Below are positions 8,424 to 9,984 of a stretch of DNA of 53,459 nucleotides, piece after piece. A model generated the notes under the pieces. The model saw only the letters and a list, made by a program, of their open reading frames with translations. It did not search any database and was not told where the DNA came from. The stretch spans positions 1 to 53,459 of the forward strand of contig DASTGK010000456.1 of assembly GCA_035719085.1 (NCBI GenBank). The letters are read 5' to 3'. The position numbers and the translations under genes were made by a program. The stretch is from Anaeromyxobacteraceae bacterium (GTDB lineage: Bacteria > Myxococcota > Myxococcia > Myxococcales > Anaeromyxobacteraceae). Numbering within the stretch: the stretch's first letter is position 1; the number at the start of each line of letters is the position of its first letter.

Positions 8424-8770
8424 GCACCGCCCCGAAAGAGCCCGTCGACGTGTACGACGTGGCCGGCTACCTCAACTCGAAGGCCGCCCGTGTCGTCCGG
8501 GCGTGCCGTGCGCGCGGATGGGCGACCGACTGGTCCCGACGCGGCGCCTACCTGTTCCTGGAGGTGGCCGAGGTCATCGAGTCCTTGCGCGGCAAGGGCG
8601 ACTCGCCGCCGGCGGAGGAGGCGGCGGACGTGCTGCTCGTCTACCTGTCCATCCTGGGCGCGAACGGAATCGATGTGGCGGTGGTGCTGGCGGAGATGGA
8701 CCGCAAACTGGCGCTGATCGAGGCCGGGACCATCGGCGCGGGACCTGACGCGGTGAGGGTGTCGCCATGA
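8420..8770 (+). CDS. mazG: MazG-like nucleotide pyrophosphohydrolase.
   Basis: LFLEVAEVIESLRGKG...EEAADVLLVYLSILGANGIDV is a typical all-alpha NTP-PPase signature. Confidence 0.7.
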   Translation: MSTAPKEPVDVYDVAGYLNSKAARVVRACRARGWATDWSRRGAYLFLEVAEVIESLRGKGDSPPAEEAADVLLVYLSILGANGIDVAVVLAEMDRKLALIEAGTIGAGPDAVRVSP

Positions 8771-9984
8771 GCGGCTACGACTGGAAGAGCAATCCCTGGT
8801 GCTGGGCGGTGACGTTCCGGGTGGTGACGGACGCGCGCCCCGAGGTGAAGCACCGGCCCATCCTGTTCTCCGGCGAGATGGTGCGGGCCATCCTCGACAG
8901 GCGGAAGACGCAGACGCGACGGCCGGTGCGCGGCAACCGCGCTCGCGTCCCGGTGACGCTGGCGGACCGCAAGGCCGGGCTGGACGGCGCGTTCTGGGCG
9001 CAGCCCGGTGGCTGGGTGCGGTGCCCGTTCGGCGCGCCCGGTGACAGTCAGACATGCGTGGTACATGGCGCCGATGACCGAAAGAGCGTCAAACGGAGTG
9101 CTTCTGCTGCCGATCCCGGTATCACCGAACGACGATTACCGAGCGGGGGAGGATGGTCAGATCTACTCTCGGACGAAGTACGCGGGCTTCGGGCGCAAGA
9201 TTCGGGTGGACTGGTATCCCTTGAGCGGCCACGTCACAGCGAAGGGTTATCGAACCATCTCGCTGTGTCACGAGAATCAAAAGGTGACAGGCCATGTCCA
9301 TCGACTGGTGTGCATGGCGTTTCACGGGCTCCCGCCGACGCCAGCCCATCAGGTGCGGCACCTGGACGGCGATTCGGGCAACAACCGGCCGACGAATCTT
9401 GCCTGGGGGACGCAACAGGAGAACTGGAGCGACCGGAGAGCGCACGGCCGGGGTTGCGAGGGCGAGAAGCATCACGCAGCGAAGCTAAGCGACGTGGAGC
9501 GAGATCATCTACGATGGTCGCTCGAGAAGGGGCTCTGCTCGATCCGTCATACTGCGAGGATGCTGGGGATGTCACAATCCTCGATTCAGGCCGTTGTTCG
9601 TGCCCGCCGCGGCTCTGGGTAAGAGAAACCTGGGCGCCCGCTGACTTGCGGTACTCGCCGCTCGCCCCGGTGTTGTACCGGGCGGATGGCGACGCTCAGC
9701 CCGTCAAGGATGAGCGCTGGCGCCCCTCCATCCACATGCCCCGCTGGGCCTCCCGGCTGACGTTGGAGGTGGTGGACGTCCGGGTCCAGCGCCTTCAAGA
9801 GATCAGCGAGGCGGACGCGCGGGCGGAGGGCGTGGAGCCGTGCGGCGGATTCATGGCGACCGCCGGCTGCTGGAGAAACTACGGGAGCGAGGGTCCGTCG
9901 TTCGGTTCCGCGCGCGAGTCGTACCGCTCGCTCTGGGACTCCATCTACGGCGCGCGCCCCCCGAGCTCTCGGAGGGCTGCGTGA
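8767..9984 (+). CDS. Conserved phage protein (ILFSGxMVRAILxxRKTQTRR / CPFGxPGD-LWVRETW / WRPSIHMPRWASR family), interrupted by a 564-bp in-frame insertion.
   Basis: The family motifs flank 9046-9609. The whole 405-codon frame stays open. Confidence 0.7.
   Translation: MSGYDWKSNPWCWAVTFRVVTDARPEVKHRPILFSGEMVRAILDRRKTQTRRPVRGNRARVPVTLADRKAGLDGAFWAQPGGWVRCPFGAPGDSQTCVVHGADDRKSVKRSASAADPGITERRLPSGGGWSDLLSDEVRGLRAQDSGGLVSLERPRHSEGLSNHLAVSRESKGDRPCPSTGVHGVSRAPADASPSGAAPGRRFGQQPADESCLGDATGELERPESARPGLRGREASRSEAKRRGARSSTMVAREGALLDPSYCEDAGDVTILDSGRCSCPPRLWVRETWAPADLRYSPLAPVLYRADGDAQPVKDERWRPSIHMPRWASRLTLEVVDVRVQRLQEISEADARAEGVEPCGGFMATAGCWRNYGSEGPSFGSARESYRSLWDSIYGARPPSSRRAA
9046..9609 (+). mobile_element. 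Homing-endonuclease insertion (188 codons, visibly lower GC) inside gene 8767-9984.
   Basis: It lies between ...CPFGAPGD and RLWVRETW... and contains an HNH ORF in the +1 frame. It is AT-richer than its flanks. Confidence 0.7.
9065..9622 (+). CDS. HNH homing endonuclease (HNH_3-like core plus C-terminal HTH).
   Basis: KGYRTISLCHENQKVTGHVHRLVCMAFHGLPP...VRHLDGDSGNNRPTNLAWGTQQENWSD...HHAAKLSDVERDHLRW...RMLGMSQSSIQAVV. The TAA stop falls inside the host LWVRETW codons. Confidence 0.8.
   Translation: MAPMTERASNGVLLLPIPVSPNDDYRAGEDGQIYSRTKYAGFGRKIRVDWYPLSGHVTAKGYRTISLCHENQKVTGHVHRLVCMAFHGLPPTPAHQVRHLDGDSGNNRPTNLAWGTQQENWSDRRAHGRGCEGEKHHAAKLSDVERDHLRWSLEKGLCSIRHTARMLGMSQSSIQAVVRARRGSG

Follow-up and report, generated by a model that had tools for sequence, protein, structure and literature searches.

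Homing endonuclease genes are thought to survive within essential or useful genes only by way of self-splicing introns or inteins, or else to reside between genes. In the nrdA gene of Aeromonas phage Aeh1 a free-standing endonuclease gene, mobE, splits the host gene, and the bypass element of phage T4 gene 60, together with mobA, is reportedly a mobile cassette. A further, fourth option was suggested from two actinophage cases, the ShiLan domain of mycobacteriophage DNA methylases and Pacc40 gp60, without a test for selection (Arsenault, Gosselin, Gogarten, Genes 2025; PMC11855218). In these cases the host frame is stop-free, an HNH endonuclease gene starts out of frame 18 base pairs into the insert and has its TAA in the last four bases, features of introns and inteins are missing, the insert is predicted to form a loop, and its border bears a short repeat resembling host sequence. 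An out-of-frame LAGLIDADG endonuclease in the intein of cyanobacterial dnaX has been known since 1998 (Gorbalenya) and is treated in bioRxiv 10.64898/2026.09.14.751524. Here we analyze a further case of the recently described ShiLan class, found in a stretch of 53,459 nucleotides from an Anaeromyxobacteraceae bacterium (contig DASTGK010000456.1; the whole stretch is referred to as the window). The evidence supports its identification as a complete HNH homing endonuclease cassette that bears no intron or intein signature and is placed out of frame (+1) within a conserved phage gene.

The window element shares with ShiLan and Pacc40 an insertion relative to uninterrupted homologs, a stop-free host frame, the lack of any intron or intein sign, a complete HNH gene in another frame that starts about 18-19 nucleotides into the insert and ends near its 3' border, a predicted host-frame loop, a short host repeat at the borders, and a GC-rich phage host. 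It differs from them in the host gene (ASCH-like phrog_874 here, a methylase there), in the endonuclease (HNH_3 with a helix-turn-helix here, HNH flanked by zinc fingers there, as compared by published description), and in the stop codon, which here lies just past the insert in recoded host codons. The present family also exceeds the published cases by far in size and diversity, and its lineages, no fewer than 66 after removal of redundancy and with a guanine-plus-cytosine (GC) content of 42-66%, permit a statistical test of selection against host-frame stops; no such test is reported in PMC11855218. The original prediction for this locus had held that an insertion of this kind was not a described class; as PMC11855218 describes the same anatomy, the class is a described one and that claim of novelty is out of date.

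Other systems share only part of this arrangement. In dnaX, too, the endonuclease gene is out of frame with the element that contains it and that is read in the host frame, with purifying selection on the endonuclease frame and a host frame that is relaxed across the overlap, but the dnaX element is a genuine self-splicing intein, whereas the window insert has no splicing domain. At nrdA, as here, an endonuclease cassette with its own expression signals and without intron or intein sits inside a conserved phage gene; there, however, the cassette breaks the host frame and the gene yields two polypeptides, a state matched by our loci L021 and L108/L111, while the host frame in the window is continuous. 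T4 gene 60 is likewise a coding gene whose mobile insert, associated with an endonuclease, is neutralized at translation and not by splicing, but ribosomes hop 50 nucleotides there and appear to translate all 564 nucleotides here. The I-HmuI-type enzymes belong to the same Pfam HNH_3 catalytic family and have a C-terminal DNA-binding module, but they are encoded in phage group I introns and there is no ribozyme here. Finally, gp051 of Aeromonas phage ST4 has a related HNH (44.6% identity) at the same GQPGD site of the same host family; unlike the window HNH, it lies in the host frame as part of a single fusion protein.

Anatomy of the insert and its host gene

The host gene (8767-9984; all features of the window given here are on the plus strand) is an open reading frame (ORF) of 405 amino acids, the sole long ORF across this region in that frame. 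Its upstream part (8767-9045, amino acids 1-93, GC content at third codon positions (GC3) 0.95) ends in CPFGAPGD and was assigned to the ASCH-like family phrog_874 based on a PHROG match and on alignments to Mx8 p14, Mx9 p45 and P0025. The downstream part (9610-9984, GC3 0.87) runs from RLWVRETW through WRPSIHMPRWASR to SLWDSIYG. Between the two lies the cassette (9046-9609), 564 nucleotides that are missing from uninterrupted homologs and that form a stop-free spacer of 188 codons in the host frame. The intact product matches phrog_874 in two pieces; without 9046-9609 the match is single and contiguous (E 4.3e-69), and excision rejoins PGD and RLWVRETW as they occur in P0025 (locus L027), Mx8 p14 and Mx9 p45. 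A tblastn search with the joined protein found the family in 344 phage records, 327 of which gave a single uninterrupted match, and the consensus of 71 uninterrupted homologs reads CPYGxPGDRLWVRETW. The closest uninterrupted relative found is P0025, which has the same unusual N-terminus and the same RRAA at its C-terminus; it reads GQLGDRLWVRETWAP across the uninterrupted junction, with CTTGGGGATCGGCTCTGGGTGCGCGAGACGTGG as the empty site. Because GD and RLWVRETW are contiguous there, the insert comprises exactly 564 nucleotides (188 codons) between these motifs. The junctions were compared by motif anchoring, since global nucleotide alignment misplaces the gap (the N-terminal variable region differs).

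Almost the entire insert is occupied by an HNH homing endonuclease ORF of 185 amino acids (9065-9622, with a second in-frame ATG at 9074) in the +1 frame relative to the host; only 19 nucleotides of the insert precede its ATG. This ORF matches Pfam HNH_3 (E 3.4e-13, 49.4 bits against a gathering cut-off of 24.8) and phrog_59 (E 2.5e-31). The catalytic domain extends over amino acids 77-120 (9293-9424), and the catalytic columns H99, N106, N111 and N120 are invariant among relatives. A C-terminal helix-turn-helix region (amino acids 140-179, 9482-9601) shows weak, sub-gathering matches to HTH_38, HTH_50 and HTH_28; the segment is conserved in relatives and is probably the DNA-binding module of the endonuclease. 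The TAA of the endonuclease (9620-9622) sits 11-13 nucleotides beyond the 3' border of the insert and is supplied by the rare host codons GTA AGA (9619-9624), which encode Val-Arg of LWVRETW. At this position the occupied site-A alleles shown carry GTA AGR or GTG AGG, and empty alleles GTG CGC or GTG AAG. The window HNH is 59-74% identical to the cassette HNHs that occupy the same site in the other read-through loci from the viral and genomic collections.

The insert has a GC content of 61%, compared with 71-73% in its flanks. Read in the HNH frame the insert has a GC3 of 0.72, but read in the host frame only 0.49, whereas the host parts reach 0.87-0.95; the coding signal therefore belongs to the HNH frame. 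In the host frame the spacer, whose tryptic peptides would extend from SQTCVVHGADDR to CSCPPR, consists of 64% Ser, Gly, Arg, Ala, Asp and Pro. No group I or group II intron was detected with Rfam between 8300 and 10500 even at E<=10, and no Rfam family reached the gathering threshold anywhere in the window; a match to aceE-II (E 2.1) in the permissive scan was dismissed as chance. Neither the spacer nor the whole protein has any Pfam match, and hence no Hint or intein domain, and the insert is followed by Arg in place of the Cys, Ser or Thr that an intein would require. The original prediction had recognized this anatomy from the sequence. Its 188-codon insert of lower GC between CPFGAPGD and RLWVRETW was borne out by the PHROG match and the uninterrupted homologs, the contiguity of GD and LWVRETW that it had stated for the family holds in the 327 records and in P0025, Mx8 p14 and Mx9 p45, and its complete HNH_3 ORF is confirmed by a significant Pfam match, with weaker matches for the proposed helix-turn-helix. 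The endonuclease TAA was indeed found inside the host LWVRETW codons, and the proposed lack of an intron and of an intein agrees with the Rfam and Pfam searches.

The host protein has no Pfam or NCBIfam match, a sequence-profile search of the PDB was empty, and the protein is recognized solely by PHROGs and fold comparison. An AlphaFold model of the uninterrupted P0022 (predicted local distance difference test score (pLDDT) 82.6) resembles ASCH domains such as E. coli YqfB, with Foldseek probabilities of 0.99-1.00 and target template modeling scores of 0.48-0.72 against YqfB and ASCH structures. The site of insertion separates, in this model, the strand E86-90 (RLWVR) from a variable loop that is long and of low confidence. 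The host protein is a circular permutant: the strand NPWVWxxxF(K/R)R, gone from the C-terminus (9940-9984), is at the N-terminus, where SNPWCWAVTFRVV (amino acids 8-20, 8788-8826; predicted strand at residues E11-19) represents the strand that is normally C-terminal in the family. The permuted arrangement is also present in the uninterrupted P0025, P0006, P0045 and P0060, and therefore constitutes a real subfamily and not damage. The stop of the host gene shares bases with the ATG of the next gene (TGATG), and its start overlaps the upstream gene (ATGA). The window as a whole (1-53459) is similar to Mx8 and Mx9 at the protein level only, with no near-identical record in the phage collection, and no tRNA genes were found in it.

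Selection on the two reading frames

Across the insert in the window, the host frame holds no stop codon and the third frame holds four. The probability of an open host frame was estimated as 0.0009 by codon shuffling, as 0.0015-0.0025 by permuting synonymous codons with the HNH protein unchanged (expectation, about 5.1 stops), and as 0.002 by mononucleotide shuffling, close to the figure of about one in a thousand that had been given in advance.

A protein search with the 405-amino-acid product returned about 30 diverged proteins of 336-448 amino acids, covering about 80-93% of the query including the spacer. Each of the 16 that were aligned carries the spacer, read in the host frame, and overall identity among the aligned interrupted proteins amounts to 36-48%. 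The DNA of three of the proteins (L003-L005) contains an intact, well-conserved HNH gene in the +1 frame. Because a search with the 405-amino-acid protein favors open frames, a second search used the HNH protein alone and was thus blind to the host frame. It provided 20 loci from IMG/VR and GTDB genomes and the best 80 of 188 Joint Genome Institute (JGI) metagenome loci; the scan of genome contigs contributed only two loci, and the viral and genomic set (n=21) includes the window and L003-L005.

No host-frame stop was present over the whole HNH ORF in 18 of the 21 viral and genomic loci and in 77 of the 80 metagenomic loci. The third frame was open in none of these 80 and contained 7.4 stops on average. 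After clustering at 90% nucleotide identity, 66 of 69 cassette clusters, with a GC content of 42-66%, were open in the host frame. Synonymous permutation expects 2.1-10.7 host-frame stops per read-through cassette, and the third frame carries 2-17; relatives at 42-50% GC, for which 7-10 host-frame stops are expected, have none. A single host-frame stop was observed in the cassette of L096 (428-940), which may be a recently decayed or mis-assembled copy.

The same avoidance is seen in the codon context of the endonuclease gene. Of 2986 HNH codons that precede a codon starting with AA, AG or GA, none has T at its third position, while elsewhere T occupies this position in 22.1% of 8622 codons. 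The window alone gives 0/37 in this context and 30/147 elsewhere, and in the split-gene controls the two values are equal (30% vs 30%). Stop avoidance in the relatives and the T-codon context therefore strongly support the read-through interpretation. They amount to direct evidence that the host frame has been kept open by purifying selection against stops and not by chance; selection for read-through had been part of the original prediction.

We then compared constraint on the three frames. Over 153 cassette pairs the HNH frame has an amino acid identity of 0.61, compared with 0.32 for the host frame and 0.34 for the third frame, which contains stops, and nucleotide identity by HNH codon position is 0.67, 0.74 and 0.44 for positions 1, 2 and 3, respectively. 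Judged by this pattern, the HNH frame is under purifying selection. Identity in the host frame stays at the level of the third frame, which is non-coding; the peptide read in the host frame is thus a spacer free of sequence constraint, and motifs within it, for instance ERRLH and GLVS, reflect conserved motifs of the overlapping HNH. It is the openness of the host frame alone, and not the peptide sequence, that is selected. The suggestion that the host protein carries a 188-residue overprinted loop, as a form of dual coding, fares accordingly in two ways: the segment does recur in homologs, but it is not a conserved domain, and by these identities the cassette is not a true dual coding of two functional sequences. 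The spacer is probably disordered, as its composition and missing conservation indicate.

The cassette is present in some members of the host family and absent from others, and the divergence of HNH and host is weakly correlated (rho 0.38). In 66 of 99 loci a single ORF runs from KTQTRR through the cassette to NPWVW, and the flanking host parts keep the family-invariant motifs. L004, L005 and L010 have a GDRL repeat, with one copy at either border. Cassette GC tracks that of the flanks (rho 0.88), although the cassettes of the window (0.61 vs 0.71) and of L007 (13 points below its flanks) are under-ameliorated, which suggests a more recent arrival in these two loci. A near-identical empty allele of the window gene was not found in IMG/VR, where nothing exceeded 48% identity, nor was any near-identical pair of occupied and empty alleles found.

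Expression, variant loci and competing explanations

In relatives of the window a Shine-Dalgarno sequence, often together with a TTGACA-N17-TATACT element, lies upstream of the HNH ATG. Cassettes of low GC content (for example L017 at about 2440-2490, L012 and L018) show the order sigma-70-like promoter (TTGACA-N17-TATaCT), Shine-Dalgarno sequence and HNH ATG, and this promoter reads in the host frame as the conserved peptide YRLTDDRIYGIL. High-GC cassettes, including that of the window, have just a degenerate version of the promoter (GGTGACA, 9040-9046). The promoter and Shine-Dalgarno sequence of the low-GC relatives argue for an endonuclease that would be expressed independently of the host gene.

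Several other states occur at or near this site. L021 (2229-3458) has an HNH of the same clade (53% identity) at the same site, but its host gene is split, with 26 host-frame stops: a 62-amino-acid N-terminal ORF is followed by TTGACA-N18-TAGTAT and GGAGG 5' of the HNH gene, and a C-terminal ORF starts from a TTG overlapping the HNH stop. L108/L111 have the same HNH clade, the same site and a split host gene, with nine host-frame stops. In ST4 gp051 (L030, 943-2049; OR261032.1), annotated just as a hypothetical protein, the related HNH follows GQPGD in frame, and the third and -1 frames of the insertion hold 8 and 14 stops. In-frame fusion, out-of-frame read-through and a split gene coexist at one site. 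A second architecture, seen in about 13 of the 99 loci (among them L009, L017, L020 and L076), has the cassette 3' of an intact GDRL(W/Y)xKE strand and directly followed by PSIHMPRW.

Elsewhere, Gordonia phage Bachita gp71 and Smoothie-like phages (L031, 1015-2157) have an HNH_3-like segment in frame inside a metallophosphatase; gp71 is annotated 'MRE11 double-strand break repair endo/exonuclease', an annotation that hides the nested endonuclease. Myxococcus phage Mx9 has a free-standing HNH, p43 (L001, 1768-2253), two genes upstream of the uninterrupted homolog p45, and this HNH proved essentially unrelated to that of the window (E 0.006). Gp60 of Mycobacterium phage Crispicous1, considered as another hidden HNH, is merely an unannotated free-standing one.

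We consider it likely that the window carries a ShiLan-type HNH cassette between the GD turn and the strand RLWVRETW that is translated through, while the endonuclease is made separately and spreads by homing. We infer the following course of events. The host frame is the -1 frame of the endonuclease gene and is written stop-free, and the cassette would not be removed by splicing of RNA or protein. Ribosomes starting at the host ATG (8767) would read through the 188 spacer codons and then rejoin the host sequence, so that the ASCH-like protein would be made as one chain bearing a large, tolerated loop and translation would stay coupled to the next gene. The endonuclease would be produced by internal initiation at its own ATG (9065 or 9074) and its translation would end at the TAA that the recoded host codons GTA AGA provide. 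If it acts as other HNH homing enzymes do, it would cut insert-free alleles at the conserved GGNGAYCGNCTNTGGGTNCGNGAR site, and repair from an occupied allele would copy the cassette into the empty GD|RLWVRETW site.

A number of observations weigh against this interpretation. No promoter-like site or clear Shine-Dalgarno sequence lies 5' of the HNH ATG in the window, and a scan for promoters and terminators around the window cassette returned nothing. Both the loop-bearing host protein and the HNH protein of the window locus are predicted products, and the insert parts two of the most conserved motifs of the family, so it could well inactivate the host protein. An AlphaFold model of the interrupted protein (20 sequences) gives the insert a pLDDT below 45 and almost no secondary structure; because this model is poor (pLDDT 44), the description as a disordered loop depends on composition and the lack of conservation. 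In L007 (2461-3132) and L038 the host core has been lost and only short remnants of the gene, including the C-terminal INGRRGYRWEDNPTVKVIAFQV, surround the cassette; an open frame nonetheless runs through the cassette, ATGA-coupled to both neighbors. The host part upstream of the cassette in L020 is out of frame and stops at the TGA within TTGACA. These states show that openness does not always serve an intact host protein. Lastly, in the native genes nearby, in a genome of 71% GC, 40% of 185-codon windows have an open -1 frame, and an HNH gene recoded with native codon usage leaves the host frame open 10% of the time. As open -1 frames are this common in neighboring native genes, the window alone is suggestive and not decisive.

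The last two figures are also what would favor an open frame arising as a by-product of high GC content. The actual codons of the window cassette give a probability of only about 0.002, however, and a chance origin, to which we assign a negligible probability, is refuted by the metagenomic loci, by the 66 of 69 open clusters (including the stop-free relatives at 42-50% GC) and by the 0/2986 codon-context result. The main rival of the interpretation given above differs from it just in the reason for selection. According to this alternative, the open frame serves only to preserve translational coupling and to prevent Rho-dependent polarity on downstream early genes, the ASCH-like protein being non-functional or dispensable. 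The overlaps of the host gene with both neighbors, the coupled open frame of L007/L038 after deletion of the host core, the out-of-frame N-terminal host part of L020 and the unconstrained spacer sequence are all in line with this view. Against it, the flanks keep family-invariant motifs in one ORF in 66 of 99 loci, and the aligned interrupted proteins share 36-48% identity, which points to continued purifying selection on the host protein while it is occupied, and the tracking of host GC by cassette GC indicates long residence. We regard anti-polarity as the sole reason for selection as unlikely; it does not exclude selection for the host protein, because both require read-through.

It is quite improbable that the host gene is expressed as two or more separate polypeptides, with internal initiation of the C-terminal part as at Aeh1 nrdA/mobE and an incidental open frame. 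L021 and L108/L111 are in exactly that state at the same site, but the window is one continuous ORF with no stop to end an N-terminal fragment, and the 9-26 host-frame stops of the split loci, set against none in 66 of 69 clusters, mark the open state as a distinct, selected condition. HNH genes of the I-HmuI-like kind are often borne by introns. An unrecognized self-splicing intron with a ribozyme overlapping the ORF, or some unconventional removal at the RNA level, might also account for the GDRL repeats at both borders, as a similar repeat was weighed as a guide-sequence signature in PMC11855218. The Rfam scans were negative as described, the 19 nucleotides outside the ORF leave little room, and a spliced intron would gain nothing from an open host frame, whereas 66 of 69 lineages keep that frame clear of stops, so that this explanation is highly improbable. 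We see hardly more than a trace of likelihood in a non-canonical intein or other post-translational excision of the host-frame peptide. The frame is open, the insert length is a multiple of three, and out-of-frame endonucleases do exist within genuine inteins, as in dnaX; the missing Hint or intein domain and the Arg after the insert speak against it, and conserved splicing blocks are not compatible with a spacer whose conservation stays at the level of the non-coding third frame. Recoding, either as a +1 frameshift fusion that makes the endonuclease or as ribosome hopping over the insert as in T4 gene 60, appears about as remote. The HNH frame is open 5' of its ATG, from 9008, ST4 has a related HNH fused in frame at the same site, and the gene 60 bypass element itself reportedly belongs to a mobile endonuclease cassette. 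Inspection of the 5' junctions by eye, with no formal search, revealed no conserved slippery or take-off sequence; independent initiation is favored by the conserved HNH ATG, which is often accompanied by a Shine-Dalgarno sequence; and a bypass of 564 nucleotides would exceed the known 50 nucleotides more than tenfold and leave an open frame needless.

Implications for homing endonuclease genes in phages

Insertion of such an HNH cassette has consequences for annotation, because gene callers give one long 'hypothetical protein' and overlook the endonuclease: a separate HNH gene was called in none of the loci examined, and the long proteins examined had no Pfam domain. The window locus and its roughly 100 relatives supply the test of selection that the two actinophage cases of the 2025 ShiLan report lacked. 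The size of the cassette family allows the first quantitative demonstration that only openness of the host frame is selected: T-ending codons that would create host-frame stops are purged while the amino acid sequence of the spacer drifts freely. Translation through such inserts becomes directly testable, and the split and in-frame states can serve as natural controls.

Cassettes of this kind would gain a foothold most readily in GC-rich phages, in which off-frames are often open, and this would fit the hosts of both ShiLan and the window. The open state probably arises in such phages and is then kept by selection as the cassettes home into AT-richer genomes. On the strength of one clade that would have persisted in an ASCH-like phage gene over at least 66 diverged lineages by the exclusion of host-frame stops alone, we lean towards the view that homing endonuclease genes may have, in stop-free overprinting, a third general means of residing inside coding genes, next to introns and inteins.

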